From contig JBAZNQ010000001.1 of the NCBI GenBank assembly GCA_041649135.1, positions 99,037 through 163,036 on the forward strand: DNA of 64,000 nucleotides. The letters are read 5' to 3'. Below are positions 2,828 through 59,686 of the stretch, in pieces. The translations under genes and the position numbers were made by a program. This stretch comes from Patescibacteria group bacterium (lineage in GTDB: Bacteria; Patescibacteriota; Kazan-3B-28). The notes under the pieces are model-generated. The model ran no database searches, was not told where the DNA came from, and saw only the letters and a program-made list of their open reading frames with translations. Numbering within the stretch: the first letter of the stretch is position 1; every line of letters starts with the position of its first letter.

Positions 2828-3696
2828 CGATACCAGGTTAAAAATATATCTTCAAGAGTTGATTGGGTAATCGCGATATTGGTGATGGGGTACTGGTTAA
2901 TTCGCGCCAACACCGCGTTGATCTCCCCCTGCCGCACTTGAAATTTAACTGACTGGCCATTACGCTCCGTCACCATCAATCCGGCCAGTTCAGCCTCGGT
3001 GGGTACTGTTTGAAAAGTAACCTCGACTATCAGATTGCTTCGGTTGATCAGAGTGCTGACCTCTTCTACCGCCACCACCCGGCCGTCTTTGATGATTGCC
3101 ACCCGATCGCAAACTTTTTGCACTTCAGCCAAATCATGCGAGGAAAAGAAAATTGTTGTACCACCCCGTTTTAAACTCCGCAAAACTGCGTAAAAATTTT
3201 GCTTGACGATTGGATCTAGCCCATTAGTCGGCTCGTCTAAAATTAGCAGTCGCGGCCGATGCATTAACGCTTGAACCAGCGCTAATTTTTTGCGATTGCC
3301 ACTTGAATAATTCTTAACGAAATGATTTGGATTGAATTGCAATATTTCACACAACCGTGTTAACGACAGATCATTACCGCGAGCGCGAAAAGTTCTTAGC
3401 CAGTTCAATAATTCTTGTCCGCGCATAAATGGATACAAAAACGGTTCGCTCGAGACATAACCAATACAGCGATGAATCGCCAGTGCGTCCCGATGAGCAT
3501 CAAACCCAAACAAACTGACACTGCCAGTTTGAGGCCGGATGAAGTCTAGCATCAGGCGGATGGCAGTAGTTTTACCAGCCCCATTGGGGCCCAGAAACCC
3601 AAAAATCTCTCCCTCGTTCACAGAGAAGCTAAGACCTTCTACCCCCCTTACACGCCCATAGTACTTGGTCAGGTTGTTGGCTTCAATTACTCCCAT
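2824..3696 (-). CDS. ABC transporter ATP-binding protein
   Basis: Walker A GPNGAGKTT, signature YSSGNRKKL, Walker B LLILDEP, H-loop. The most plausible start is the ATG at 3696 (MGVIEANNLTKYYG); the ORF extends to 3729. Confidence 0.85.
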   Translation of the reverse strand: MGVIEANNLTKYYGRVRGVEGLSFSVNEGEIFGFLGPNGAGKTTAIRLMLDFIRPQTGSVSLFGFDAHRDALAIHRCIGYVSSEPFLYPFMRGQELLNWLRTFRARGNDLSLTRLCEILQFNPNHFVKNYSSGNRKKLALVQALMHRPRLLILDEPTNGLDPIVKQNFYAVLRSLKRGGTTIFFSSHDLAEVQKVCDRVAIIKDGRVVAVEEVSTLINRSNLIVEVTFQTVPTEAELAGLMVTERNGQSVKFQVRQGEINAVLARINQYPITNIAITQSTLEDIFLTWYR

Positions 3697-15376: not shown

Positions 15377-15562
15377 CGTCATTCTGGCCTGCCTGCCGGT
15401 GGGCAGGTAAGTCCAGCCCCGAAGGTGCCCCGTTGGGGTAGGACGCATCCAGAATCTTCCTCTCGTCATTCCCGCGCCACCTTCTGTCATTCCCGCTCCA
15501 CTCTTCGTCATTCCCATTTCTCTCTTCGTCATTCCCGCGAAGGCGGGAATCCAGAAAAGAAC
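15377..15562. repeat. Composite array of MITE-like palindromic repeats (GTCATTC... family)
   Basis: gtcattctgg...ccagaatc unit, then four tandem tcgtcattccc half-sites ending in the full hairpin gtcattcccgcgaaggcgggaatccagaaaagaaca. Confidence 0.8.
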
Positions 15563-15579
15563 ATAAACTTTTAACTCTT

Positions 15580-15620
15580 CACTCTTCACTCTTCACTCTT
15601 CACTCTTCACTCTTCACTGC
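15580..15620. repeat. Tandem heptamer repeat (ctcttca) x6 directly upstream of the next start codon
   Basis: ctcttcactcttcactcttcactcttcactcttcactcttcact. Confidence 0.8.
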
Positions 15621-19494: not shown

Positions 19495-19696
19495 AGTGTG
19501 AACGGGCAGACGCCAAATGCCGCTGACGGTTAAACTATCAGCGGCATTTTTATACCCCAAACCGTTTTTTTGTCATCCTCGGGCTTGACCCGGGGATCCA
19601 GACAAAAACAACAAAAAAGCCCATTTTCAGAAGATTTTTTACTCTCTAAAATCACCTATAAACAGCCAAAAATCGGCTCTGGGAGCAGAAAAAGTG

Positions 19697-23499: not shown

Positions 23500-23751
23500 A
23501 CACACCTGTAACTTTCAGCACAAGGCCCGCCGCAAGGCGGGCCTTTCACTTGTCCAAACGCCCATGGTCATACATAAATAATTTCGCCATTAGATGAACG
23601 ACCGTCCAGTATATTGCGAACATTTTAACCTCTATATGTCAAGTGACCATTCCTCCATTCCCCATTGGTTAGATTGGTGTAATCGGAAAAATTGATTAGA
23701 TTTGTCCCCATCCTCTAGATACTAGATGCTAAATGCTAGATACTAGTAAGT

Positions 23752-24114
23752 ATGGACAACAGCTATTTACCGGGGATAGGAATTGCGACTGGGATGACAC
23801 TAGCGGCGTGGTTGTTAGTGTTATTTTATTTTGATCCAACCACTTCTGGCGTTCCCGGTATCACTTTATTTTTTATCAGTCTAGCGGCTACTTTAATAGG
23901 TATATTGATTTTAATTTTCAATTATCTCCGCTATCGTTTTGCCAAAACGCCCGCCTCATTTGGTGTTACCATCAGGCAGGCTGTCTTGTTAGGGCTGGCC
24001 GTCTCGGGTATCCTACTATTGTTGGCTCTGGACAAGCTAAATTGGTGGAACGGGGTCGCCATCGTAGTGGCTGGTATAGTTATTGAATCCTATGCGCTGA
24101 TCAAACCGGAATAA
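23752..24114 (+). CDS. Small membrane protein (3 TM), hypothetical
   Basis: 120 aa, hydrophobic; preceded by ctagata/ctagatg tandem repeats. Confidence 0.45.
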   Translation: MDNSYLPGIGIATGMTLAAWLLVLFYFDPTTSGVPGITLFFISLAATLIGILILIFNYLRYRFAKTPASFGVTIRQAVLLGLAVSGILLLLALDKLNWWNGVAIVVAGIVIESYALIKPE

Positions 24115-24261: not shown

Positions 24262-25242
24262 ATGAAAGATAAACTCCAAAAAATTCTTGATTCTGCTCGC
24301 AAAGAAATTACTTCAGCTCAACCTGAAGCGTATGAAGATTTGCGAGTAAAGTATCTTGGCCGGAAGGCCGAGTTGAGTTTGCTATTGCGTCAGCTTGCCG
24401 ACCTATCTTTGGAAGAAAAAGTCGAACTGGGTAGTTTTGGCAACCAAGTGAAGACTGAAATTACTGAACTGTTAAAGCAATTAAAACGATCTCCAGCCGA
24501 AGGTAAATTACAAAACTTTGATCCGACTATTCCGGGAATTATTCAACCGCTCGGCCATCTTCATCCAGTTACCCAAACTACGTATGAACTGATAGACATT
24601 TTCAGAGGTCTTGGCTACGACGTTGCGACTGGTCCTGAAGTTGAATTGGAAAAATATAATTTCGACATGCTAAATATCCCTGCCGATCATCCAGCCCGTG
24701 ATCAGTGGGATACTTTTTGGGTCAAGCAAGAAGATGGTGGTAAAGATAATACTCTCCTCCGGACTCATACTTCGCCCGTTCAGATCCGTTATATGCTGGA
24801 ACACAAACCGCCGATCCGCATTATTAGCCCCGGCCGAACTTTTCGTTACGAAGCCGAAGATGCTACTCATAGCTCTGTTTTCTATCAACTTGAAGGACTG
24901 GTGGTTGACGAGGGGATTACGGTCGCCAATCTCAAAGCCACCCTGCAGACCATGATGCAACAGGTGATCGGTTCGGAAGCCAAAATCCGCCTTCGTCCCA
25001 GCTTCTTCCCATTCACCGAACCAAGCTTTGAAATGGATGTCTGGTTTCAGAACAAGTGGTTAGAGCTGATGGGCTGCGGCATGGTCAATCCAATTGTCTT
25101 AAAAAACTGTGGCATTAATCCTGACAAATATTCTGGTTTCGCTTTTGGTGTCGGTATCGACCGACTGGTCATGCTCAAATACAACATCAAAGACATCCGC
25201 TATTTCCTGTCTGGTAATTTAGAATTTTTAGAGCAGTTTTAA
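24262..25242 (+). CDS. pheS: Phenylalanine--tRNA ligase alpha subunit
   Basis: Class II aaRS motifs: FRYEAEDATHSSVFYQLEGL, FFPFTEPSFE, GCGMVNP, GFAFGVGIDRL. Confidence 0.9.
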   Translation: MKDKLQKILDSARKEITSAQPEAYEDLRVKYLGRKAELSLLLRQLADLSLEEKVELGSFGNQVKTEITELLKQLKRSPAEGKLQNFDPTIPGIIQPLGHLHPVTQTTYELIDIFRGLGYDVATGPEVELEKYNFDMLNIPADHPARDQWDTFWVKQEDGGKDNTLLRTHTSPVQIRYMLEHKPPIRIISPGRTFRYEAEDATHSSVFYQLEGLVVDEGITVANLKATLQTMMQQVIGSEAKIRLRPSFFPFTEPSFEMDVWFQNKWLELMGCGMVNPIVLKNCGINPDKYSGFAFGVGIDRLVMLKYNIKDIRYFLSGNLEFLEQF

Positions 25243-25263
25243 ACTGTCACTTCTTGCTTTCTC

Positions 25264-25507
25264 TGTCATTCCCGCTCCACCTTTCGTTGTTCCCACCTCG
25301 CTCTTCGTCATTCCCGCGAAGGCGGGAATCCAGAAAAGAAAAAAGAACAACCCACAAAATGTCTGCTTATGTCTACATTCTTGCCAGCAATAAAAATGGC
25401 ATCGAGCATGGAAAATAAGAATCATTGAAGAGCAGAACCCGCAATGGAAAGATTTATTTCAAGAAATTTTAATTTAATGTCTGGATTCCCGCCTACGCGG
25501 GAATGAC
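25264..25507. mobile_element. Palindromic element carrying an internally deleted GIY-YIG gene remnant (degenerate copy of the 39.4-kb element)
   Basis: Left arm tgtcattcccgc...gtcattcccgcgaaggcgggaatccagaaaag and right arm ctggattcccgcctacgcgggaatgac. Between them, 25359-25477 encodes MSAYVYILASNKNG fused to ...QNPQWKDLFQEILI*. This is the N- and C-termini of the GIY-YIG protein, joined at an AAAAATGG microhomology. Confidence 0.75.
25359..25477 (+). pseudogene. GIY-YIG nuclease gene remnant (internal deletion)
   Basis: The first 14 codons and last about 20 codons are colinear with the CDS at 39515-39802; the middle about 170 nt is missing. Confidence 0.7.
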
Positions 25508-25512
25508 GAGTA

Positions 25513-27786
25513 ATGAAATTTTCCTACAACTACCTCAAAAAAATCCTTAAGTTCAAAAAAACTCCTCAAGAAATTGCGGAGCTGATGGATTTGCATATTA
25601 CCGAAGTTGAATCGGTTTTGGCTAATGCCGCGTTTACCAAAGTGGTGGTAGGGGAGATCTTGGAAATTCGCGATCATCCCAATGCCGACAAACTTCATCT
25701 CACCAAAGTTGATATTGGTACCGAAACCTTGAATGTGGTTTGTGGAGCTGCCAATATTGCCGTTGGTCAAAAAGTGCCGCTAGCACTAGTTGGAGCCGTG
25801 CTTCCTAACGGACTAGAAATAAAGGAGGCTGTCATTCGTGGTGAAAAATCCTTTGGGATGATTTGTAGCGAAACCGAACTTGGTCTGGCGGATAAATCTG
25901 ACGGCATTTTGGTCTTGAGATCATCAGCCATTCCGGGTACACCAGTTGAGGAAATTCTGGACACCAATACTGATACGATCATCGAGCCCAAAATTCTCTC
26001 TAATCGTCCTGACTTTATGTCGTATGTCGGTATGAGCCGGGAACTAGCAGCAGTATTGAATATCGATTATCAACCAACTATCGATACTAAATTTATCGAG
26101 TCCAACGTCAAAACTATGACCGCTCTTGCCGTAAAGGTGGAAGATACCAAGTTGTGTCCTCGTTATCTGGGGCGGGTAGTCAGAAATATTACTGTCAAAT
26201 CTTCACCCAAGTGGATGCAGGATGTCTTAAATGCTTCTGGTCTTCGGCCGATAAATAATATCGTCGATATCGCCAACTTCGTCATGTTGGAACTTGGTAA
26301 TCCCATTCACACTTTTGATTATGCCAAGGTAGGGGATGGGGAAGTCGTTGTGCGCAATGCTCATGATGGTGAGACTCTCGTTTGTTTGGATGGTGTTGAG
26401 CGCAAATTAGATAACAAAACTTTGATTATCGCAGACAGTAAAAACCCAATTGCGATCGCTGGCATCATTGGAGGGGAGGAGAGCGGGGTTTCTGACCAAA
26501 CTCGTGATTTAGTCGTTGAGGTCGCCGCCTTCGAAAAAACCTCAATTCGCCGGACATCAAAAAGATTGGGAATTGCGACTGACGCTGAATTGCATTTTGA
26601 AAGGGGAGTGACTCCCCTTTCGCCAGAAAAAGCAATGGAGCGGGTCCTCAATTTAATTCAGGCCGACTCCCCTGCCTGCGAAATTCTAGCCGGCAATCTG
26701 GATGTTCACGGCAAATTGCCTTCACCGTTTTCGCTTTTACGCGTTTCAGTAGAGGGGATCAATCAATTACTTGGGATTACGATTTCTGCTCAACAAATGG
26801 CGGGGACATTGAATAAACTTGATTTGCCAACCGAAATTCGTCGCAATGATCTAGTGATTAAAGTCCCCGCCTATCGGGCTGATATTGTTGGGATGTCGGA
26901 CATTGCTGAAGAAGTTTTGCGGATTTATGGAGCCGACCAAATCCCCTTCGTTATGCCGCAAATTACTGGTAAGCCGTTTGAAATGCCGGAAATTGAAAAA
27001 GTCAAAATGCAAATTCGCGAACTGATGGTTCGACTTGGTTTTACTGAAGTTTACACTCATCCATTTGATGATCTAAAAAACGACAAACACAAAGTTGCTA
27101 TTAAAAATCCCTTAAGTGAGGGTTGGGTTTATTTAGTCGATAATTTAAGCACCAATTTAGTCGCGTTGGATATCAATCGGCCTAATTATCGGATCTTTGA
27201 GCTCGGGACTACTTTTCATGACTACGGCGAGACCTTGCCTGCCGAAGAGCAACAACTGGCAGTGCTGATCAAAGGGGCTGATGCTTATCGCATTGCTCGA
27301 GGAGTTGTCGATCAATTAATTCGCGAACTTGGTCTCAATTTGCGAATGACCGAATTTATTCACTATTCTGGTTTGCTTTTACAATTACCCAACCAAGACA
27401 TCGTGGTGGGTAGTCTTTCGGCTTTGGATGAACATCGAGCCGCATTCGTATTAGAAATTAGCCGGCTGATGCCTCATATTGCTTCGGCCAAGCACTTTAT
27501 TGAGATCAACAAATTCCCCGCTATTAAAATGGACATGGCGTTTATTATTCGTTCTGAAGTTAGGATCGGGGAGTTACAAACTCTAATTCAAGACATCGAC
27601 AAATTAGTTGATACAGTTGAGTTGTTTGATGTTTTTGAACTACCCAAAGATGGAAATCGTTCCGTGGCATTCCATATTGAACTGCGAGCTAATGATAGAA
27701 CCCTCACTAACACCGAACGTGATGATATTCACGCTAAAATTGTTGAGGCCGCCAAAGTCCGATTCGACGCCAAGCTAAGAGAATAG
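25513..27786 (+). CDS. pheT: Phenylalanine--tRNA ligase beta subunit
   Basis: N-terminal tRNA-binding OB domain (GEILEIRDHPNADKLHLTKVDIG), B3/B4 and B5 regions; 757 aa. Confidence 0.9.
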   Translation: MKFSYNYLKKILKFKKTPQEIAELMDLHITEVESVLANAAFTKVVVGEILEIRDHPNADKLHLTKVDIGTETLNVVCGAANIAVGQKVPLALVGAVLPNGLEIKEAVIRGEKSFGMICSETELGLADKSDGILVLRSSAIPGTPVEEILDTNTDTIIEPKILSNRPDFMSYVGMSRELAAVLNIDYQPTIDTKFIESNVKTMTALAVKVEDTKLCPRYLGRVVRNITVKSSPKWMQDVLNASGLRPINNIVDIANFVMLELGNPIHTFDYAKVGDGEVVVRNAHDGETLVCLDGVERKLDNKTLIIADSKNPIAIAGIIGGEESGVSDQTRDLVVEVAAFEKTSIRRTSKRLGIATDAELHFERGVTPLSPEKAMERVLNLIQADSPACEILAGNLDVHGKLPSPFSLLRVSVEGINQLLGITISAQQMAGTLNKLDLPTEIRRNDLVIKVPAYRADIVGMSDIAEEVLRIYGADQIPFVMPQITGKPFEMPEIEKVKMQIRELMVRLGFTEVYTHPFDDLKNDKHKVAIKNPLSEGWVYLVDNLSTNLVALDINRPNYRIFELGTTFHDYGETLPAEEQQLAVLIKGADAYRIARGVVDQLIRELGLNLRMTEFIHYSGLLLQLPNQDIVVGSLSALDEHRAAFVLEISRLMPHIASAKHFIEINKFPAIKMDMAFIIRSEVRIGELQTLIQDIDKLVDTVELFDVFELPKDGNRSVAFHIELRANDRTLTNTERDDIHAKIVEAAKVRFDAKLRE

Positions 27787-28774: not shown

Positions 28775-29020
28775 AACGTAACCTCCTCCTTTTTACCACC
28801 GTAGTTAGGAAACCTATTCCAACCACTTGCCATTCTATCTCAACCCCGCTCCCAGTCAATTTTCCACTGTCATTGCGAGGAGCCCAGAGGTGTCGAGGGG
28901 CGACGCGGCAATCTACTTTTTGTCATATCCAAAATCTTGCTCCATAGGATAAAATCAGGTACAATTGAGGTAGCAATTTCGCCCCTAAGGCGACTTTCCG
29001 TATGGTCTTAATTACCTGTC

Positions 29021-29110
29021 ATTCCCGCGGAGGCGGGAATCCAGAAAAGAACAGAAAAATGTTTTTGTTTCTGTCTGGATCCCCAATCAAGTTGGGGATG
29101 ACGACTAAGA
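29021..29110. repeat. Full-length two-hairpin MITE-like element upstream of gyrB
   Basis: gtcattcccgcggaggcgggaatccagaaaagaacagaaaaatg tttttgtttctgtctggatcccc-aatcaagtt-ggggatgac; the right half is an imperfect reverse complement of the left. Confidence 0.8.
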
Positions 29111-29125
29111 AAAGTTTTATTACCA

Positions 29126-31174
29126 ATGCCTGACGACAATAAAAAAACTAGCGGTTCCTACGGTGCAAAAGATATTCAGGTCCTAGAAGGGCTTGAGCCA
29201 GTTCGCAAACGCCCCGGTATGTATATCGGCTCCACCTCGGTGGAGGGTCTTCACCATATGATTTGGGAGGTGGTCGATAACTCTATTGATGAAGCCATGG
29301 CCGGTCACGGCACGATGGTGGAAGTTATTATTCACAAAGACGGCAAGGTAACCGTGATTGATGATGGTCGCGGCATCCCAACCGAGATACATCCTCAAAC
29401 CAAGAAGTCCACCCTTGAAACTGTTTTAACCACTCTTCATGCCGGTGGTAAGTTCGGCGGCGAAGGTTACAAAGTTTCCGGTGGTTTACATGGTGTGGGC
29501 GTGTCAGTTGTCAACGCCCTGTCTGATTTTATGCGGGTAGAAGTAACCCGTGATGGCAAAACTCATGCCCAAGAATATTCCAAAGGTATCGCCACCAGTT
29601 CAGCCAAAGTGATCAACAAAGATGTCAAAGGACATGGTACAAAAATAACTTTTCATGCCGACAAAACCATCTTTGATGACAACGAAGGGTACGAATGGAA
29701 AACCGTTCTCGAACATTTGAAACAGCAAGCTTATCTCACCAAAGGCGTTTTTGTAAAAATTCACGATGAACGTTCGGGCGAATCGCAGGAATTCAAATTT
29801 GAAGGCGGAGTGCAGTCATATGTCGAAGATTTAGATAAAAACAAGACTCCGCTCTTCACTCCACCATTTTATATCGACAAAGAACGCAACAATGTCCAAG
29901 TTGAATTGTCGATTCAATACACGGAAGATTTTAATGAAACGCTCAAAGCTTTTGCTAATAATATTTACAATCCCGAAGGCGGAACTCACGTAATTGGTTT
30001 TCGTACCGCGTTAACTCGCATTTTAAATGCTTACGCTAAAAAAACGGGGATTATCAAAGAAGCGAAAGATGCTTTATCGGGCGACGATGTTCGCGAAGGT
30101 CTGACCGCCGTTATTTCTGTCAAACTGGCGAATCCCCAATTTGAAGGTCAGACTAAAGCCAAGTTGGGTAATGCCAATGTTCGGACTGCCGTCGATGCGG
30201 TAATGTCCGATTATTTCAATAACTACCTTGAGGAGCATCCTTCAGAAGCTCGTCGGATTATCAGTAAGACCATGTTGGCTGCCAGAGCCCGCCTAGCGGC
30301 GCGTCAGGCGCGTGAAACGGTACTGCGCAAAGGTATCCTCGAAGGTATGACCCTGCCGGGGAAACTAGCCGACTGTTCCAACCGAGATCCATCCAAATCA
30401 GAGATCTTCATTGTCGAGGGTGAGTCTGCCGGTGGTTCCGCCAAAAGTGGACGTGATCGTCAGTTCCAAGCTATTTTGCCTTTACGTGGGAAAATTTTGA
30501 ACGTAGAAAAAGCTCGGCTGGATCGCATGTTATCTTCCGAGGAAATTAAAGTTTTGATCATTGCCCTTGGTGCCGGTATTGCTGAACAATTCAATGTTGA
30601 TAAAATTCGTTACCATCGCGTAATTATTATGACTGATGCCGATGTTGATGGTGCGCACATTAGAACTTTGCTTTTGACTTTCTTCTACCGCTACATGCGC
30701 GCCATTATCGACCGCGGCTATCTCTATATTGGCCAGCCGCCACTGTATCAGCTTAAGTCTGGCAAAGATGTGCGCTGGGTTTATTCTGACGAAGAGAAGG
30801 ATAAAGTAATGAAAGACATGCAGGAAGCCGCTGCCAAGAAGAAGGAAGGCAAGAAAGCTAAGATGGAAACCGATGACACCGCCATCGTCATTCCCGCGGA
30901 GGCGGGAATCCAGACCGAAACAGAAACCATCGCCGAAGATTTGTCATCTACTAAAGGTATTGCGATCCAACGTTACAAAGGTCTTGGAGAAATGAATCCA
31001 AGCCAACTTTGGGAAACCACTATGGATCCTGCTAATCGGATTATTCACCGTGTTACTGTTGATGATGCCGAAATCGCTGATGACATCTTTTCCACCCTCA
31101 TGGGAGACGACGTTGCCCCCCGCAAGAAATTCATCGAAGATAACGCCCAATTCGTCCAGAATCTGGACGTGTAA
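29126..31174 (+). CDS. gyrB: DNA gyrase subunit B, carrying an in-frame repeat-derived insertion
   Basis: GHKL ATPase motifs (EVVDNSIDEA, GLHGVGVSVVNALS), TOPRIM (EGESAGGSAK, IMTDADVDGAHI), C-terminal QRYKGLGEMN. Codons VIPAEAGIQ at 30886-30913 are encoded by gtcattcccgcggaggcgggaatccag. Confidence 0.9.
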   Translation: MPDDNKKTSGSYGAKDIQVLEGLEPVRKRPGMYIGSTSVEGLHHMIWEVVDNSIDEAMAGHGTMVEVIIHKDGKVTVIDDGRGIPTEIHPQTKKSTLETVLTTLHAGGKFGGEGYKVSGGLHGVGVSVVNALSDFMRVEVTRDGKTHAQEYSKGIATSSAKVINKDVKGHGTKITFHADKTIFDDNEGYEWKTVLEHLKQQAYLTKGVFVKIHDERSGESQEFKFEGGVQSYVEDLDKNKTPLFTPPFYIDKERNNVQVELSIQYTEDFNETLKAFANNIYNPEGGTHVIGFRTALTRILNAYAKKTGIIKEAKDALSGDDVREGLTAVISVKLANPQFEGQTKAKLGNANVRTAVDAVMSDYFNNYLEEHPSEARRIISKTMLAARARLAARQARETVLRKGILEGMTLPGKLADCSNRDPSKSEIFIVEGESAGGSAKSGRDRQFQAILPLRGKILNVEKARLDRMLSSEEIKVLIIALGAGIAEQFNVDKIRYHRVIIMTDADVDGAHIRTLLLTFFYRYMRAIIDRGYLYIGQPPLYQLKSGKDVRWVYSDEEKDKVMKDMQEAAAKKKEGKKAKMETDDTAIVIPAEAGIQTETETIAEDLSSTKGIAIQRYKGLGEMNPSQLWETTMDPANRIIHRVTVDDAEIADDIFSTLMGDDVAPRKKFIEDNAQFVQNLDV

Positions 31175-32770: not shown

Positions 32771-32878
32771 TAGTTAACAGTTAATAGTGAACAGTTAAGG
32801 AAAAATTATTTAATAAATTGTCGCTTGCGACACCAAAACTATTCACCCTTCACTTTTAACTTTTCACTGACTTTCGCT

Positions 32879-34545: not shown

Positions 34546-34572
34546 AAAAAACCGCCACAGGCGGCTACCAAA
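34546..34572 (-). terminator. Terminator for rpmA (T-run on minus strand), possibly bidirectional
   Basis: Minus-strand reading ggtagccgcctgtggcggttttttgtg. Confidence 0.55.
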
Positions 34573-34607
34573 ATTATTCACTATTCACTTTTAACTATTG
34601 ACCCGTC

Positions 34608-34889: not shown

Positions 34890-35084
34890 AAGAAGAAAAT
34901 TAGTTTCTAGTATCTAGGATTTAGTATCTAGAAAGATGGGGACGCACCTCACCTAGTCGCTAGATGCTAGCCCCTAGATACTGATAGTACTCCGCCAGAT
35001 TACCGTATCTGGTGAAATAGGTCAAGGGGTAATAAAAAAGCTTCCCGCAAGGAAAGCTTTTGAGGAGATCTTACGCCGAGAACC

Positions 35085-38209: not shown

Positions 38210-39430
38210 GTGGTGAAAACGATCCAACAACTGATCGAGGCAGAAGCCAAGCGTCAGCAGGAGACCCTGTCTCTGATCGCTTCAGAGAATATTGCCAGCC
38301 GAGCCGTTCGGGAAGCGGTCGGCTCGGTTTTGATGAATAAATACTCCGAAGGCTACCCAAATAAACGTTACTATGGCGGCAATGAGATAGCTGACGAGGT
38401 GGAGGAGCGGGCGATTGAACTAGCCAAAAAACTCTTCCACGCCGAGCATGCTAATGTTCAGCCCTATTCTGGCAGCCCCGCTAATATTGCCACTTACACC
38501 GCACTCGCCAATTTTGGCGACACCATCATGGGCATGAGCCTAGCCCACGGTGGTCATCTCACTCATGGCCATAAAGTCAGTATTAGTGGCAAAGCGTATA
38601 AATTTATCCAATATGGAGTGGATCAAGCTACCGGCTTGCTTAATTACGACGAAATCGAAACGATGGCGAAGATTTTTAAGCCAAAAATTATTGTCTGTGG
38701 CGCGACGGCTTACCCTCGTGAAATTGATTTTGCTCGATTTGCTAAAATCGCCAAACAAGTCGGTGCGTATTTATTGGCCGACATTTCCCATATTGCCGGA
38801 TTAATTGCCGGTGGTGTTCATCCACAGCCTTTCCCACACGCCGATGTCGTAATGACTACGACTCACAAAACTTTGCGCGGCCCCAGAGGTGCTATTATTA
38901 TGTGCAAAAAACCACTTGCCAGTTTAATTGACAAAGCGATTTTCCCCGGCCTTCAGGGTGGTCCGCATGATAATATTACTGCCGCCAAAGCAATCTGTCT
39001 GGAAGAGGCCAGCAAGCCAGAATTCAAAAAGTATGCTCGTCAAATCATCGACAACGCTCACGCTCTTGCCTCTAACTTAACTCAATTCGGCTTCAAGTTA
39101 GTTAGTGGCGGTACTGATACTCATTTAATGTTGGTCGATTTGAACAATAAAAAAATTACCGGCATGGAAGCCGAACAAGCACTAGAGCAAGTGGGGATTA
39201 TCGTTAACAAAAATATGATTCCTGGCGATCTGCGTTCTCCCTTTGACCCTTCTGGCATTAGACTTGGTGTCGCCAACATTACTACTCGTGGTATGACCGA
39301 ACCGGACATGGCGGAGCTGGCATCTATTATCAATGACACTCTTGCCAATCCAACCAGTAAAAGCGTATTATCACAAGCGAAAAAGCGAGTAGTCGAACTG
39401 ACCATAAAATTCCCGATTCCATCGTCATAA
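38210..39430 (+). CDS. glyA: Serine hydroxymethyltransferase
   Basis: PLP-lysine motif TTTHKTLRGPRG, GGPH; SD aaggagg immediately upstream (GTG start at 38210 or 38213). Confidence 0.9.
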   Translation: MVKTIQQLIEAEAKRQQETLSLIASENIASRAVREAVGSVLMNKYSEGYPNKRYYGGNEIADEVEERAIELAKKLFHAEHANVQPYSGSPANIATYTALANFGDTIMGMSLAHGGHLTHGHKVSISGKAYKFIQYGVDQATGLLNYDEIETMAKIFKPKIIVCGATAYPREIDFARFAKIAKQVGAYLLADISHIAGLIAGGVHPQPFPHADVVMTTTHKTLRGPRGAIIMCKKPLASLIDKAIFPGLQGGPHDNITAAKAICLEEASKPEFKKYARQIIDNAHALASNLTQFGFKLVSGGTDTHLMLVDLNNKKITGMEAEQALEQVGIIVNKNMIPGDLRSPFDPSGIRLGVANITTRGMTEPDMAELASIINDTLANPTSKSVLSQAKKRVVELTIKFPIPSS

Positions 39431-39439
39431 GCCTCCCTG

Positions 39440-39833
39440 TTCGTCATTCCCGCTCCACTCTTCGTCATTCCCGCGTAGGCGGGAATCCAGAAAGAAAAAA
39501 TAACAATCTATGAAATGTCTGCTTATGTCTACATCTTAGCCAATGGCAAAAATGGGACCTTATACACCGGCGTGACAGTACCATTGGTCAAGAGGGTGTA
39601 CGAACACAAGAGCAAATTTATTTCTGGATTCGCTGAACAATACAACGCAACCGACCTAGTCTATTACGAAATATTTGACGATATAGAAAACGCTATTCTT
39701 CGCGAAAAACATATCAAAAAATGGCATCGAGAATGGAAAATTAAATTGATCGAGAAAAATAATCCACAATGGAAAGATCTATACCAAGAAATTTTAGTTT
39801 AATGTCTGGATTCCCGCCTTTGCGGGAATGACG
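39440..39833. mobile_element. Full-length palindromic element carrying an intact GIY-YIG nuclease gene; candidate autonomous parent of the MITE family
   Basis: Left arm ttcgtcattcccgctccactcttcgtcattcccgcgtaggcgggaatccagaaag; right arm tctggattcccgcctttgcgggaatgac; 288-nt ORF in between. Confidence 0.7.
39515..39802 (+). CDS. GIY-YIG nuclease superfamily protein (YhbQ/UPF0213-like, 95 aa)
   Basis: MSAYVYILANGKNGTLYTGVTVPLVKRVYEHK (GIY-N10-YTG motif with a conserved R and E); a remnant paralog at 25359-25477. Confidence 0.75.
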   Translation: MSAYVYILANGKNGTLYTGVTVPLVKRVYEHKSKFISGFAEQYNATDLVYYEIFDDIENAILREKHIKKWHREWKIKLIEKNNPQWKDLYQEILV

Positions 39834-39883
39834 AACGTATGGCCAAGTGGTGGAATGGTATAGTGCACCCCATAAAATTTTTT

Positions 39884-39970
39884 GGCTCGGTGGCGGAACT
39901 GGTATACGCGCACGACTCAAAATCGTGTATCCGCAAGGATGTGTGGGTTCGATTCCCACCCGAGCCACCA
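39884..39970 (+). tRNA. tRNA-Leu (anticodon CAA), class II with long variable arm, CCA encoded
   Basis: Acceptor GGCTCGG/CCGAGCC, anticodon stem-loop cacga-CTCAAAA-tcgtg, 16-nt variable arm, T-arm tgggTTCGATTccca, ACCA end. Confidence 0.8.
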
Positions 39971-44582: not shown

Positions 44583-44716
44583 GAGAAAAATCTCATCAAT
44601 CTAACCAAAAAGGAAGTGGAGAGGAGGATGGAAATTCGACAATTCGCCAGAATGACGAGCTTTTTATTTTTATCTTTGCCCCTAGCTACTAGCTACTAGC
44701 TACTAGATACTAGATA

Positions 44717-46147
44717 CTAGATACTGACTGTACTAGATACTAGATACTGTCCAAGCCCGCCAAAGATATTGGAATCATTCTGACGCAAAATTAGTTCAAC
44801 CAATTTGTTGGCTTTTAACAGCCAGATTTTTTTCGCATCACTTCCAAGGTAAACTGTAGTTTTGTTAACATCAGCTACTGTATAAACATTTGTTCCGCTA
44901 ACGTCGCTAACGTTAAGTTGATTATTAGTAGTTAAAAACAAGCTTTCATCTTGTTTGCCTAGCAATTCAACTGCGGCGGGGAAATTTTTTAGTGTCATTT
45001 CAGTTTGATTAACGAAATTATGGCTCATTAAATTCCGACCAACCGTATAAAACAATCTTGGTTTCAAATTATGATGTTCGTAGTAAACGTCACCGATATT
45101 GCTAGCTACTTTTGTCCAAATCGGAACTTCGTTTTTTCCAACAACAGTTTTATCCCACAACCACAACCCCGCTGTGCTGTTTTTAGCCGTTACGATAATT
45201 CTCTCGTCATTCACAAAGACGATTTCGTAGCTTTTTCCGACCGGCAAATCGTTAGTTACCGCTTCTCCCGCTTTGTCATCAAACAAATTACTGTCTCGCA
45301 TCAGCGAAATACTTCCGTTACTGTTACGAATAATGTAGTACAACCGACTATTACTATAAGACGCCCCTAAAATATTTTTAGCGTAAAGGTTTATTCGGTT
45401 GAGATTCAGATCAACTGCATATACTGTCGTCCCCATTACTGCCATTAGTCGATCATTGTCTAACCAGCTTAATTTTTCTGCCGTTGCTTGATTCAGGGGG
45501 CTACCAAATAACTGCCCTCGATAACCTTCTTGAAAATCGGCTACCACTAACCATTTTCTTCCCCCTGAAATCACTCCCAACGCCCAAGTATTGCCATCCG
45601 ACTTTTTGGCCAAATACACGTCAGTCGTTGCCTGCAACACACTTTTTACATTGGCTGGTAATCGGCTAAAGTCCAGCGGCGTCGCTGTACCGTTAGCGTA
45701 TTTGATAAATTTTCGGTCTTTCGAAAAATATAATAAATCGTTTCCCACGCTAATTACTCGCTGGGCATCCTCTACCAAAATTTGACTCGGAATATCGGTC
45801 AGCACCAAATCCAAGTTGTGTTCTTCTACCACTTGTCTTGATGCCACGTCTATGGTTTTAAAAAACGGCCGATAATCCTTCAGCTCCAATTTGATATTAT
45901 ATGCCCCCGGCAGAACATTGCGCATTGTAATTGGGGTCAGCCGGGAGGTTTTATGATCATTAATGTATACCGTTGCTCCGCTTGGTTTACTGCTGATTGC
46001 CAACACACCAGTCTTCTGGATCGTCCAAGTCGCCAAATCCAGCCGATAGCCGGTCGCGTATCCTATGGCATAGACTGCCACCACGATGAAAACCAACGTG
46101 GACAGCACATAAGCCAGCAGTGTCGGCCAATTTTTCTGATAGGTCAT
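44717..46147 (-). CDS. Membrane-anchored PEGA-domain protein with beta-rich C-terminal region
   Basis: N-terminal TM; PEGA-like SSKPSGATVYINDHKTSRLTPITMRNVLPGAYNIKLELKDYRPF. Confidence 0.55.
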   Translation of the reverse strand: MTYQKNWPTLLAYVLSTLVFIVVAVYAIGYATGYRLDLATWTIQKTGVLAISSKPSGATVYINDHKTSRLTPITMRNVLPGAYNIKLELKDYRPFFKTIDVASRQVVEEHNLDLVLTDIPSQILVEDAQRVISVGNDLLYFSKDRKFIKYANGTATPLDFSRLPANVKSVLQATTDVYLAKKSDGNTWALGVISGGRKWLVVADFQEGYRGQLFGSPLNQATAEKLSWLDNDRLMAVMGTTVYAVDLNLNRINLYAKNILGASYSNSRLYYIIRNSNGSISLMRDSNLFDDKAGEAVTNDLPVGKSYEIVFVNDERIIVTAKNSTAGLWLWDKTVVGKNEVPIWTKVASNIGDVYYEHHNLKPRLFYTVGRNLMSHNFVNQTEMTLKNFPAAVELLGKQDESLFLTTNNQLNVSDVSGTNVYTVADVNKTTVYLGSDAKKIWLLKANKLVELILRQNDSNIFGGLGQYLVSSTVSI

Positions 46148-47430: not shown

Positions 47431-47504
47431 TATTTATTTGTCTAGTCATCCGCCAGCTAATGAATCCTTTCTCTCTTCTGCCATCCCACGTCCTTCCTTT
47501 TTGT

Positions 47505-47605
47505 CATCCTGAACTTGATTCAGGATCCAGCCAGAAACAACAAACAAAACTCTTTTTCTTTTCTTGTCTAGATTCCGGGTCAAGCCCGGAATGACAAAAT
47601 AAATA
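47505..47605. repeat. Full-length MITE-like element (gtcatcctgaac...ccggaatgac variant)
   Basis: ttgtcatcctgaacttgattcaggatccagccagaaacaac...cttgtctagattccgggtcaagcccggaatgacaaa. Confidence 0.75.
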
Positions 47606-47658: not shown

Positions 47659-48816
47659 ATGTCTAATCCAAAAATTGCCATCGTTCACGACTTCCTCCAA
47701 TCCTTCGGTGGTGCCGAAAGAGTTACTTTGGCGATCAGCGATCTTTATCCCGATGCGCCGATCTATTCTTTGACTTACGATATCAAGCTCAATCCTTGGT
47801 TCGGTAAAAGAAAAATCCTCACGTCCTATTTGCAAAAATGGAGCTGGGTTCCGGCTAAATTTTTAATCCCGTTTTATGCTCAAGCGATTGAGAGTTTTGA
47901 TTTTAATGATTTTGACGTAGTTATTTCTAGTTCTCATTCATTCGCGAAAAATATTCTTACCAATCCGGACACAATTCACATTTCCTATATTCATTCGCCG
48001 ATGCGTTACGTTTGGGATGCGTGGCACTCTTATTTAGCTGGTCAGCGAGTTAGTCGTTTGAATGGGATTTTAGGAGTAGGGTTAGTCCGCAATACTGTTG
48101 TCAATATTCTGCACCATTTGCGACTTTGGGATCGGCTGGGTGCATCGCGGGTAGACCAATTTGTGGCTAATTCCCACTACGTGGCGGATCGTATCCGCAA
48201 ATTTTATCGTCGGGAATCAATTGTTATTTACCCACCAGTTGATACTGATAAAATTCAAATTTCTCACGAGCATAAAAATTACTTCATCGCCATTGCTCGC
48301 TTAAGCCAGTACAAGCGACTAGATTTAGTCGTCCAAGCTTGTAATGAATTAAATCTGCCATTAATAGTTATCGGTACTGGTGAAATGGAAGCCGAATTAA
48401 AAAAACTAGCTGGGCCGACAGTCACTATTACTGGCTGGATCAGCGACGAACAAAAGATTAAATATATTGAAAGTGCTCGCGCCCTAATTTTCCCTGCCGA
48501 AGAAGATTTTGGAATTGTACCGGTGGAAATTCAAGCGGCTGGTAAACCAGTGATAGCCTTTGGCAAAGGCGGCTGTTTGGAAACTGTAATTGATGGCGAA
48601 ACCGGCATCTTTTTCCCTGAACAGACGGTAGAAAGTCTTAAATTAGCTATCCAAAAATTTATTCAAATCGAGTCGACTTTCGATCCAGCTACCATTTCCC
48701 AGCACGCTCAACAATTTTCTCGTCAACGTTTCCAAACTGAACTTAGAAAACTAGTTGAAGAAAAATTAGCAGAGCATAGTTTTCGTCATCCTCTGGCTTG
48801 CGTCAGTCCTCCGTAG
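47659..48816 (+). CDS. Glycosyltransferase family 4 (GT-B)
   Basis: EEDFGIVPVEIQAAGKPVIAFGKGGCLETV. Confidence 0.8.
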   Translation: MSNPKIAIVHDFLQSFGGAERVTLAISDLYPDAPIYSLTYDIKLNPWFGKRKILTSYLQKWSWVPAKFLIPFYAQAIESFDFNDFDVVISSSHSFAKNILTNPDTIHISYIHSPMRYVWDAWHSYLAGQRVSRLNGILGVGLVRNTVVNILHHLRLWDRLGASRVDQFVANSHYVADRIRKFYRRESIVIYPPVDTDKIQISHEHKNYFIAIARLSQYKRLDLVVQACNELNLPLIVIGTGEMEAELKKLAGPTVTITGWISDEQKIKYIESARALIFPAEEDFGIVPVEIQAAGKPVIAFGKGGCLETVIDGETGIFFPEQTVESLKLAIQKFIQIESTFDPATISQHAQQFSRQRFQTELRKLVEEKLAEHSFRHPLACVSPP

Positions 48817-48867
48817 CTCAACGAGCGAAGGATGGAACCAGAGGATCCAGTCCCACCCTTTGTTATT

Positions 48868-49040
48868 CTCGGACTTGATCCGAGAATCCAGAAAAGAACA
48901 GAAAAAATGTTTTTGTTTCTGGCTGGATTCCCCAATCAAGTTGGGAAATGACAACAGAAACTTAAGAATAACCAAAAGTCCACCGTCATTCTGGTAAGGT
49001 CGACGCAGCGACCGCATCCAGAATCGTATAAGTGACGATG
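48868..49040. repeat. Two adjacent MITE-like elements
   Basis: ctcggacttgatccgagaatccagaaaagaacagaaaaaatgtttttgtttctggctggattcccc...gggaaatgac followed by gtcattctggtaaggtcgacgcagcgaccgcatccagaatcgtat. Confidence 0.75.
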
Positions 49041-49094
49041 TACACCATTCCTCATTTTCTCTGGCTTGTGTCAGTCATGTGTAGCTTGTCAGAG

Positions 49095-49260
49095 CGCAAT
49101 GGTCATCCTCGAGCTGAGTGCCGTAGGCAACTCGACGTCGGGGACCCAGACAGAAACAGCCAACAAAAACTTTTTCTTTTTTGTCTGGATTCCCGCCTAC
49201 CTGCCCGAAGTGCTACACCGTTGCAGGCGGGCGCGGGAATGACGAAGAGGAGGGCTCATA
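49095..49260. repeat. MITE-like element (gtcatcctcgag...gggaatgac variant)
   Basis: cgtcatcctcgagctgagtgccgtaggcaactcgacgtcggggacccagacagaaacag...ttgtctggattcccgcctacc...gcgggaatgacg. Confidence 0.75.
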
Positions 49261-50916: not shown

Positions 50917-52233
50917 ATGAGAGAGAAAGTTAGAGTTAGATTTGCTCCAAGCCCGACTGGACCATTACATATTGGGAGTGCGCGTACCGCGCTCTTCAAT
51001 TATCTGTACGCTAAAAAATTTAACGGTGTTTTTGTCTTACGTTTTGAAGACACGGATACCGCTCGCAGTCAAAAAGTCTTTGAAGAGAACATTTTAGGGG
51101 GTTTAGCGTGGTTGGGGTTTGTGACTGATGAAACTTATCATCAAAGCGAACGCGAAAAAGTGTATCGCTCGTATTTACAAAAATTGACCGATAGGGGACT
51201 TACTTATGAACATGATGGGGGAGTCTATTTCAAATTACCAACCGACAATCGAAAGGTCATTGTTGATGACATTATTCGCGGCCAAGTGGAATTTGAAAGT
51301 AAAGATTTTGACGATCTAGTTTTATTTAAAAAGGATGGCTCACCGACCTTTCATTTTGCCAATGTTGTAGATGATATTGAAATGAAAATTACTCACGTTA
51401 TTCGTGGCGAAGATCATTTGAGCAACACTCCAAAACATATTTTGCTTTATGAGGCACTAGATGCTACACCACCCCAATTTGCCCACATCCCGCTGATCCT
51501 AAATCCAGATCGCACCAAGATGAGTAAACGTGCCGGTAACGTCAATTTGGACGACTACAAACAAGCCGGATATCTACCCGAAGCCTTAATTAACTTTCTT
51601 GTTCAACTTGGCTGGTCTGACCCCTCTTCTTCTGTCATTCCCGCGAAGGCGGGAATCTATTCCCTAGACGAACTAATCAAACTTTTTGATTTGTCTCGCG
51701 TCCAAAAAGCCGGAGCAGTTTTCGACATAAAACATCTCAATCACCTGAACCACTATTACCTGATGCAAAAACCTCTAGACGAATACACCGCACTAGCTAC
51801 TTCTCGTCTCTCGCAACTCGCAACTCGCAACTCGCGACTTCTTCGTTCCGCCCTGCGTCTGGTTCAAGACCGCGCCCAAACTCTGGGTGAAATCCCCTCT
51901 TTAATTGAATTTTTCTTCACCCAACCGGAATATGACTCTCCCCTGCTGGTTTTCAAAAAATCCAGTCCCGAACAAACTATGACAGGGTTGAAAACCGCTT
52001 TGAAGGTTTTAGAAGCCATCAGCGAGACAGAGTGGGCCCAACCAAAGTTACAACAAATCTTAGACGAGGCGACAGCAGCCGAATCACTTCAGCCGGGGGA
52101 TTTGTTCTGGCCGGTAAGAGTAGCTTTATCTGGTCGCGATGCCAGCCCCAGCCCGACTGAATTGTTAGACGCCCTTGGAAAAACCGAATCTATCGCAAGG
52201 ATCAAAACCGCTATTAATAAGTTGGGCAATTAA
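50917..52233 (+). CDS. gltX: Glutamate--tRNA ligase, carrying an in-frame repeat-derived insertion
   Basis: HIGH motif PTGPLHIGSAR, KMSKR. Codons SVIPAKAGIY at 51644-51667 are encoded by gtcattcccgcgaaggcgggaatc. Confidence 0.9.
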   Translation: MREKVRVRFAPSPTGPLHIGSARTALFNYLYAKKFNGVFVLRFEDTDTARSQKVFEENILGGLAWLGFVTDETYHQSEREKVYRSYLQKLTDRGLTYEHDGGVYFKLPTDNRKVIVDDIIRGQVEFESKDFDDLVLFKKDGSPTFHFANVVDDIEMKITHVIRGEDHLSNTPKHILLYEALDATPPQFAHIPLILNPDRTKMSKRAGNVNLDDYKQAGYLPEALINFLVQLGWSDPSSSVIPAKAGIYSLDELIKLFDLSRVQKAGAVFDIKHLNHLNHYYLMQKPLDEYTALATSRLSQLATRNSRLLRSALRLVQDRAQTLGEIPSLIEFFFTQPEYDSPLLVFKKSSPEQTMTGLKTALKVLEAISETEWAQPKLQQILDEATAAESLQPGDLFWPVRVALSGRDASPSPTELLDALGKTESIARIKTAINKLGN

Positions 52234-52242
52234 TTCTGTCGT

Positions 52243-52300
52243 CATCCTCGAGTCGAAAGCGTAGCGCTTCGACATCGGGGACCCAGACAGAAACAAAATA
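52243..52300. repeat. MITE-like element
   Basis: gtcatcctcgagtcgaaagcgtagcgcttcgacatcggggacccagacagaaacaaaa. Confidence 0.75.
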
Positions 52301-53469: not shown

Positions 53470-53612
53470 CGTCATCCTCGAGCCGAGTGCCGTAGGCAAC
53501 TCGACATCGGGGATCCAGAAAAAACAAAACATTTGGTTTCCCGACGAACAGAGGGACCACCCATTTCCCTTTCTCGTCATTCTGGCTTGTCCAGAATCTT
53601 ATAAAGCGATAC
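53470..53612. repeat. Two MITE-like elements (one partial)
   Basis: gtcatcctcgagccgagtgccgtaggcaactcgacatcggggatccagaaaaaacaaaac ... cgtcattctggcttgtccagaatcttat. Confidence 0.7.
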
Positions 53613-59399: not shown

Positions 59400-59510
59400 G
59401 TCATTCTGGCAAGCCCCCTCCGTCATTCTGGTAATTCTGCCGTACGGCAGAAGCGACCAGAATCGTAGAAAATATATTTATAAGATTCTGGCCAAGCCAG
59501 AATGACACAA
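59400..59510. repeat. MITE-like element array (gtcattctgg ... ccagaatgac)
   Basis: gtcattctggcaagccccctccgtcattctggtaattctgccgtacggcagaagcgaccagaatcgtag...aagattctggccaagccagaatgac. Confidence 0.75.
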
Positions 59511-59686
59511 ACAAAAAACAGCGCCGCAGGCACCACCAAAACTTTTTCATCGCAGATCCTTCGACCTGTCCGCCATAGCTTTAGCGACGGAGGAAGCCTT
59601 GGCGGAGGAGGACCATTCACTTTTAACTTTCTGCTATCTCAAATTATTCACTGTTCACTATTCACTTTTAACTTTTCATTATCTCT

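Follow-up and report, generated by a model that had tools for sequence, protein, structure and literature searches.

What does it mean that a small nuclease gene lies exactly between two copies of the dominant hairpin repeat of its surroundings, and do gene and repeats form a unit that can move? The question was raised by a 64-kb stretch of DNA (the whole stretch analyzed, hereafter the window) from a Patescibacteria (candidate phyla radiation, CPR) metagenome-assembled genome (MAG), in which a 95-aa GIY-YIG open reading frame (ORF) at 39515-39802 stands between two hairpin arms. An original prediction made from these letters had proposed that the gene and its arms are an autonomous element, with nearby palindromes of the miniature inverted-repeat transposable element (MITE) type as its derivatives. 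We conclude that the locus is very probably ssnA, a gene of the Ssn family, bracketed by two copies, in inverted orientation, of the hairpin that belongs to it, the Neisseria Transformation Sequence (NTS), which is also matched by a degenerate pattern known as SRM. Its product is predicted to be an Ssn-type single-stranded DNA (ssDNA) endonuclease cutting 5' of YTCGTCAT, whose substrates would be the canonical NTS hairpins of the genome, its own flanks included. The Ssn/NTS system is already known, and this locus is an ordinary member of it in a new host lineage.

A GIY-YIG gene between two inverted hairpins

A hidden Markov model search of the 95-aa protein matched the GIY-YIG family PF01541 over residues 3-76 (Pfam, E 3.3e-15), and no further family was significant; the protein is the GIY-YIG domain alone. 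The arms that had been described on its two sides were found there as inverted repeats. In the inverted-repeat register, the left arm reads GTCATTCCCGCGTAGGCGGGAATCCAGA (39464-39491), and the right arm (39805-39832) has the reverse complement GTCATTCCCGCAAAGGCGGGAATCCAGA; the arms are therefore 28-bp terminal inverted repeats. Each arm is a hairpin with an 8-bp stem and a 4-nt loop. When folded as ssDNA, the left arm reached a z-score of -4.2 and the right arm -5.1 relative to shuffles (energies in Table 1), and the folded hairpins of the window as a whole had z-scores of -3 to -5. The right arm begins 3 nt past the ssnA stop codon, and inside the 371-bp unit there was no ORF besides the GIY-YIG gene. 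Outside the left arm stands a short array of repeated 5' halves of the hairpin (half-sites), and the first of them extends over the stop and final codons of glyA. The intact copy occupies the interval between glyA and tRNA-Leu(CAA).

Assignment to the Ssn/NTS system

Chenal et al. (Nat Commun 2025, PMC11893778) describe NTS, CGTCATTCCCGCGMAVGCGGGAATCYRG, as the oriented form of the older dRS3 repeat, and tie it across bacteria specifically to ssnA, a gene that is repeat-flanked in many phyla and encodes a 94-aa single-domain GIY-YIG protein (CDD cd10448). They purified the SsnA proteins of N. meningitidis, N. elongata, N. wadsworthii, and Wolbachia, which bind the hairpin in ssDNA only and in one orientation only, and cleave a few nucleotides 5' of it; double-stranded DNA (dsDNA) is not cut. 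Cleavage by the N. meningitidis enzyme is abolished by Y6A, Y17A, and E64A and depends on the sequence of the stem as well as on its structure, and in N. meningitidis, SsnA lowers transformation by NTS-bearing DNA. The same source calls the NTS-ssnA-NTS architecture identical to that of insertion sequences, compares it with IS200/IS605, REP, and BIME, and proposes domestication.

There, membership in the family is defined by E < 1e-10 over >75% of the length of Neisseria SsnA, with a stricter optional filter of at least 60% amino-acid identity to the N. meningitidis protein. As our reference we used the 94-aa protein of N. gonorrhoeae (L166:601-885), which we took to be the orthologue of N. 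meningitidis SsnA (CAX49033.1), assuming this from its length and from the positions of Y6, Y17, and E64. (The record that supplied this Neisseria ssnA and its NTS context, NZ_CP119140.1, is a 2.17-Mb N. gonorrhoeae chromosome filed as a plasmid in PLSDB.) By BLASTP, 49 of 94 residues (52%) of the window protein were identical in a gapless end-to-end alignment (E 9e-38), which lies within both the E-value and the length limits of the family as measured against the gonococcal protein. Y6, Y17, and E64 are at the same positions in the two proteins, and these residues, together with R27 and H31, are invariant among 14 diverse homologues (alignment A1). A sequence search of the PDB with the window protein returned no solved relative, PADLOC and PHROGs returned no matches and hence no catalogued defense or phage family, and NCBIfam returned only sub-threshold matches, including one to a group I intron endonuclease (E 0.014).

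The repeats of the window also fit the Ssn/NTS system. With one mismatch allowed, the NTS consensus matches six places in the window where none is expected. Among the six are the four arms of the intact gene copy and of a second, decayed one. The published SRM pattern matches eight places, compared with 0.28 in shuffles, and the core ATTCCCGC-N4-GCGGGAAT occurs eight times in the window and not at all in 100 shuffles.

Some observations weigh against this assignment or narrow it. At 52%, the identity misses the 60% filter, and the specificity of the enzyme may differ. About 15 units of the window have other stems and may not be substrates, given that the N. meningitidis enzyme requires a particular stem sequence. 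Enzymatic activity and a biological role in the Patescibacteria genome are predicted from homology, and a role in natural transformation is known from N. meningitidis only (PMC11893778). The idea that this palindromic repeat family would have a GIY-YIG partner was nevertheless correct and matches the Ssn/NTS system of 2025; what did not hold up is the view of such a partnership as an unusual, new system, which had already been published together with its insertion sequence-like layout and the IS200/IS605-REP analogy. Part of the modest value of the locus lies in the occurrence of a canonical Neisseria-type NTS together with ssnA in a CPR bacterium.

Gene and arms are associated across phyla

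The arms could also have come to flank the gene by accident, if the gene were a housekeeping gene of the yhbQ type into whose intergenic surroundings MITEs had been inserted independently on both sides. Two observations fit this explanation: ssnA sits in short intergenic gaps where the repeats of the genome accumulate anyway, and its position between pheS and pheT, described below, is syntenic in relatives. A comparison with other genomes decided the matter. Our first database search gave 2558 relatives of the window protein, with identity typically 60-70%, in Patescibacteria, Alpha-, Beta-, Gamma-, and Deltaproteobacteria, Chloroflexota, Bipolaricaulota, and other groups, and we measured the association of gene and arms at 80 loci from 80 species genomes of many phyla. 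Matches to a strict regular expression for the arm were 29-fold enriched within 150 bp of the gene (1.64 versus 0.057 per kb), and 32 of 39 such matches pointed inward. Because it required CCAG[AG], the expression recognized arms at only 27 of the 80 loci, and most of the seemingly negative loci had CCAT or CCAC tails or other stems; it was replaced by a hairpin-based scanner with control segments. With the scanner, an arm was present within 160 bp in 127 of 159 gene flanks (80%) compared with 315 of 3378 control segments (9.3%), and 55 of the 80 loci had arms on both sides. The stems vary between genomes (TCCCGC, GCCCGG, TGCTGAA, and others), while GTCAT and ATCCA are constant. The published figures agree: by the degenerate SRM pattern, a nearby repeat accompanies 71% of ssnA homologues, and 42% are flanked on both sides (PMC11893778).

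These data support the conclusion that the gene and its arms are one conserved unit and not the product of two chance MITE insertions. The explanation by a housekeeping gene and coincidence is excluded because of this cross-phylum association with its consistent inward orientation; gene and arms are, in addition, present or absent together at the glyA-tRNA-Leu site, and we are left with practically no reason to credit it. It was also the scenario that the original prediction had named as its refutation, and it is now itself effectively refuted.

Units are gained and lost at orthologous sites

A second locus, between pheS (24262-25242) and pheT (25513-27786), had been described as having the same arms around an internally deleted copy of the gene, and alignment confirmed this. 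The pseudogene has lost 169 bp, which in the full copy lie between two AAAAATGG repeats (39548-39555 and 39717-39724), and the out-of-frame loss leaves a stub. Arm to arm, the decayed unit spans 25306-25508 (inverted-repeat register of the arms: 25307-25334 on the plus strand and 25480-25507 on the minus strand), and its similarity to the intact locus (39463-39833) does not continue past the outer edge of the right arm. The two window copies of ssnA are only ~80% identical. The decayed copy is equally distant, at 78-81% identity, from every intact copy with which we compared it, that is, the pheS-pheT copies of relatives and the gene at the glyA site.

Two related Patescibacteria contigs, GCA_016936175.1 JAFGPN010000006.1 (loci L083/L167) and Ga0315281_10001306 (loci L084/L168), share the gene order of the window (DAC, YbbR, an RNase_T-domain protein, pheS, pheT, gyrB, alr, and pyrG), and in both, the pheS-pheT gap contains an intact ssnA with both NTS arms. 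For the glyA-tRNA-Leu site, we turned to the closest glyA relatives from metagenomes. The site is empty, with 30-59 nt, in L088 (glyA identity 85%), L090 (75%), and L092 (70%); it holds an arm-spacer-arm MITE in L087 (89%) and L089 (85%), and it holds the full element in L086 (93%) and in the window. L089 and L168 are on the same contig, which therefore combines an intact gene at pheS-pheT with a MITE at glyA, the reverse of the pattern in the window genome, and the positions of SRM units and MITEs vary among the three otherwise syntenic genomes (window, L167, and L168). The end of the glyA product differs as well: it is FPIPSS in the window and L086, and FPI followed by L, E, or K in relatives without the full element; in the window, the change is due to the half-site array that overlaps the end of the gene. 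Since empty, MITE, and full states occur at one orthologous site, the data support the conclusion that the arms and what lies between them come and go together over the time since these relatives diverged, and this series goes beyond PMC11893778.

The right arm is followed, ahead of the functional tRNA-Leu(CAA), by a 22-nt duplicate of the 5' end of tRNA-Leu (39841-39862). This fragment matches the first 22 nt of the L086 tRNA-Leu exactly, and next to it comes the ccccataaaatttt flank, as in the empty site of L092; L089 has a comparable 11-nt tRNA-Leu fragment after its MITE. The fragment looks like DNA carried along by recombination rather than the trace of a clean cut-and-paste event. At the flanks of the filled, MITE, and empty glyA-tRNA-Leu sites, there was no target-site duplication, direct repeat, or recognizable target. 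The proposal that gene plus arms had moved or duplicated as a unit was therefore borne out only in part: the glyA-tRNA-Leu series upholds gain and loss as a unit, but movement catalyzed by the nuclease is unproven, given the missing target-site duplication, copies that are only ~80% identical, and the syntenic position at pheS-pheT.

Is the unit a mobile element?

One reading of the insertion sequence-like layout with its 28-bp inverted ends is that NTS-ssnA-NTS is an active autonomous transposable element, in which the GIY-YIG nuclease would excise or copy the unit via ssDNA hairpins, as in IS200/IS605 or RAYT/REP, and from which the MITEs and solo arms would be non-autonomous derivatives. 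The three states of the glyA-tRNA-Leu site fit this reading, as do the presence of two loci in one genome, one of them decayed, and the differing positions of SRM units and MITEs among the three syntenic genomes. Homologues 55-65% identical across very distant phyla suggest horizontal spread, and the hypothesis is also raised by the authors of PMC11893778. We nevertheless consider active transposition rather unlikely. Beyond the lack of a target-site duplication or conserved target at filled and empty sites, the sequence distance between the window copies, with the decayed copy no closer to any one intact copy, argues against a recent burst, and within the 64 kb, there are two copies, one a pseudogene, and no set of near-identical ones. 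The pheS-pheT position is conserved in two relatives, and inheritance over this span of time is therefore mainly vertical. GIY-YIG enzymes hydrolyze DNA without a covalent intermediate, so rejoining would need host functions, and we know of no strand-transfer or joining step for such enzymes. The inverted arms put the predicted cuts on opposite strands, unlike the same-strand excision of IS200/IS605, and the 22-nt tRNA-Leu fragment is more like recombination that carried flanking DNA than like clean transposition. Our literature searches for a later paper showing transposition of NTS-ssnA-NTS units found only PMC11893778.

What the enzyme would do can be proposed by homology to the Neisseria and Wolbachia proteins. 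The 95-aa protein would bind the hairpin when it is single-stranded, in one orientation only, and would then hydrolyze the strand a few nucleotides 5' of it, at a point in the flank immediately beyond the conserved YTCGTCAT. Because the arms are inverted, one predicted cut would be on the top strand, beyond the left arm, and the other on the bottom strand, beyond the right arm. Other canonical NTS copies, namely solo units, arm-spacer-arm MITEs, and the in-frame copies in gyrB and gltX, are likely further substrates. The probable effect in the cell would be the cutting of NTS-bearing ssDNA, which could be incoming transforming DNA or replication and repair intermediates, and this would limit or shape recombination around the repeats.

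A bolder reading makes the unit an element of a new mechanistic class: the 95-aa hydrolytic GIY-YIG protein would nick the ssDNA hairpins at the ends and host replication or repair would complete the move, with MITEs, solo arms, and in-frame copies as non-autonomous progeny and the half-site arrays and the tRNA-Leu fragment as footprints. The empty, MITE, and full series is compatible with this reading and does not prove it, and we regard it as speculative, somewhat more so than active transposition itself.

Homing would be another way for a selfish gene to spread. As with the free-standing GIY-YIG homing endonucleases of phages, the nuclease would cut empty alleles or target sites, and host double-strand-break repair would copy the gene in. 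The GIY-YIG fold, the below-cut-off NCBIfam match to a group I intron endonuclease, and the presence/absence polymorphism at glyA-tRNA-Leu are what one would expect from such a gene. However, the protein consists of the 95-aa catalytic core, lacks any additional DNA-binding domain, and has no matches to PHROGs or phage families, and the characterized Ssn members recognize the element's own repeat, in ssDNA, and leave dsDNA uncut (PMC11893778). We think homing very improbable.

Whether NTS-ssnA-NTS is or was mobile is left open in PMC11893778, and both the site series and the pair of intact and decayed copies bear on it. With these sites, an assay of excision or insertion would have defined substrates and boundaries. 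Mobility becomes testable when the site series is taken together with the half-site arrays, the in-frame copies, and the tRNA fragment.

The hairpin repeat family across the window

The repeat unit is longer than the hairpin and consists of YTCGTCAT, stem-loop-stem, ATCCAGA, and a CAGAAACAAAAAC-like A-rich tail of ~15 nt (repeat families D1, D6, and D7). The tail that follows the left arm of the intact element also follows units at 15555, 19602, 29046, 30914, and 53520. In its broad sense, the hairpin family (D1 and D3-D10) is the top repeat family of the window. The exact TCCCGC stem is present in nine units, four of which flank the two gene copies; ~15 further units combine the frame GTCAT-hairpin-ATC(C/T)AG with other stems, whose changes compensate one another, and there are ~7 half-sites besides. 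The original count of more than 20 ORF-less copies in the window holds for this broad family but not for the exact stem.

Four arrangements of the unit were seen (Table 1): solo units (at 15528, 19572, and 53471), tail-to-tail inverted pairs with a 28-40-nt spacer that resemble MITEs (two pairs listed in the table and a third at 48862-48952), an intergenic mosaic, and in-frame copies in essential genes. All solo units are on the plus strand, like nearly all genes of the window, whose GC skew is too weak to assign leading and lagging strands and so to link this orientation with replication. Arrays of the 5' half of the hairpin with a 21-bp period accompany both gene copies and the solo unit at 15528 (array at 15463-15527) and lie outside the left arm, never the right arm (D3-D5). 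The array unit is YTCGTCATTCCCGC plus 9 nt, and such arrays are also found in L084, L086, and some distant loci; the sections of PMC11893778 used here do not mention them.

The in-frame copies in gyrB and gltX show that the repeat is tolerated within coding sequence. Compared with solved GluRS structures, the gltX copy adds 6 residues. The gyrB copy is common to the window and L168, where it has a 32-nt loop (+10 residues), and is absent from L167; a variable acidic linker of similar length occupies this region, and no exact insertion boundary can be drawn.

A sub-family with an ATTCTGG/CCAGAAT stem (CGTCATTCTGG...CCAGAATC) was also observed at 15377-15457, 48976-49026, 53575-53598, 59421-59465, and 59487-59509 (the last on the minus strand). 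These units keep the outer frame of NTS with another stem, and their loops range from short to 60 nt.

Table 1. Positions of the two ssnA units, the neighboring tRNA gene, and further hairpin repeats in the window
Feature	Position	Strand	Basis or remark
Array of NTS 5' half-sites (TCGTCAT..., 21-bp period)	39422-39462	+	Outside left arm; repeat families D3-D5
Left NTS/SRM hairpin arm, CGTCATTCCCGCGTAGGCGGGAATCCAG	39463-39490	+	1 mismatch to NTS consensus; fits SRM pattern; -8.9 kcal/mol
A-rich tail/leader, AAAGAAAAAATAACA...	39491-39514	+	Follows NTS in most units (repeat families D1/D6/D7)
ssnA, predicted Ssn-family single-domain GIY-YIG nuclease, 95 aa	39515-39802	+	PF01541 match, Neisseria alignment, invariant residues
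Right NTS/SRM hairpin arm, inverted relative to left	39806-39833	-	1 mismatch to NTS consensus; fits SRM pattern; -9.7 kcal/mol
tRNA-Leu(CAA), functional	39884-39970		
Half-site array outside left arm of decayed copy	25263-25305	+	D3-D5
Left NTS arm of decayed copy, between pheS and pheT	25306-25333	+	0 mismatches to NTS consensus
ssnA pseudogene, frameshifted to MSAYVYILASNKNGIEHGK and stop	25359-25477	+	Alignment A2
Right NTS arm of decayed copy; ends 5 nt ahead of pheT start codon	25481-25508	-	NTS consensus match
Solo left end: 3 half-sites and full NTS, no gene, no right arm	15463-15554	+	D3-D5, NTS match
Solo variant SRM hairpin	19571-19601	+	SRM pattern, folding
MITE-like pair upstream of gyrB: NTS (+), 28-nt A/T-rich spacer, inverted variant hairpin	29017-29102		
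In-frame NTS inside gyrB, peptide VIPAEAGIQ	30886-30913	+	NTS consensus match
MITE-like pair of variant hairpins	47503-47595		
Intergenic mosaic of six SRM-type hairpins (48785+, 48862+, 48923-, 48976+, 49102+, 49185-)	48785-49243		
In-frame NTS inside gltX, peptide VIPAKAGIY	51633-51660	+	SRM pattern
Solo long-loop SRM hairpin	53471-53519	+	D16, folding; similar units at 52240-52287 and 49102-49150

Comparison with known systems

The closest counterpart is Ssn/NTS of N. meningitidis (PMC11893778), with which the window shares a single-domain GIY-YIG protein of ~94 aa, the same catalytic residues, a 28-nt hairpin with 0-1 mismatch, the inverted NTS-gene-NTS layout, many extra copies in intergenic mosaics, and a distribution across phyla. 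It differs in its Patescibacteria (CPR) MAG host, in the 52% identity of the protein, and in that activity is here a prediction. Two of the ~24 units of the window are in frame inside essential genes, compared with 2% of NTS inside genes in N. meningitidis, and the window adds half-site arrays outside the left arm, a decayed second copy, and the empty, MITE, and full series. Among the older Neisseria repeats, dRS3 and the NIMEs share the ATTCCC-N8-GGGAAT core, which the window has in its eight exact core copies, and an arrangement in intergenic mosaics; dRS3, however, is the palindrome alone, whereas the window units carry oriented NTS flanks (YTCGTCAT ... CCAGA and an A-rich tail).

IS200/IS605 and the REP/BIME-RAYT systems are alike in layout only, each combining a small protein with genome-wide ssDNA hairpins, a repeat-flanked gene, and dispersed REPIN- or MITE-like pairs. 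Their enzymes are HUH Y1 tyrosine transposases, whereas GIY-YIG was the sole domain found in the window unit, with no HUH domain. IS200/IS605 cuts on the same strand, but in the window unit, with its inverted arms, cuts are predicted on opposite strands.

I-TevI-type homing endonucleases and E. coli YhbQ/UPF0213 have the GIY-YIG catalytic fold in common with the window protein. The homing enzymes of this fold have extra DNA-binding domains and cut dsDNA targets that lack the element, and YhbQ-type genes are, to our knowledge, not repeat-flanked. Rickettsia palindromic elements (RPEs), which are ~100-150 bp long, are tolerated in frame inside essential protein genes, as are the short palindromes in gyrB and gltX of the window; there, however, the insert is the 28-nt NTS with or without its tail. 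We know of no cognate nuclease classically assigned to RPEs. Rickettsia is listed among the SRM-rich genera in PMC11893778.

Further observations

In one of the two syntenic relatives (GCA_016936175.1, L167), a different small GIY-YIG gene of 86 aa, beginning MIYTYVIRSAKDGRLYTGST..., separates DAC from YbbR (2603-2863), two genes that adjoin directly in the window (13116/13117). The small gene has an inverted repeat of its own on its two sides, ACCCCGTTAGAGTT / AACTCTAACGGGGT, and a related ORF stands beside a tRNA-Leu fragment in L091 (~3180-3480). These observations point to a second family of GIY-YIG cassettes bounded by repeats in these genomes.

Two further kinds of repeat were seen in the window. 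Leaders rich in TTCACT lie just upstream of several gene starts (15578-15618, with six tandem TCACTCT heptamers, 32832-32873, 34567-34602, and 59612-59685; D2 and D17) and may represent a motif of promoters or 5' UTRs in this genome. Short tandem repeats of the CTAGATACTAG type occupy three intergenic sites (23696-23753, 34953-34991, and 44670-44734; D11 and D19).

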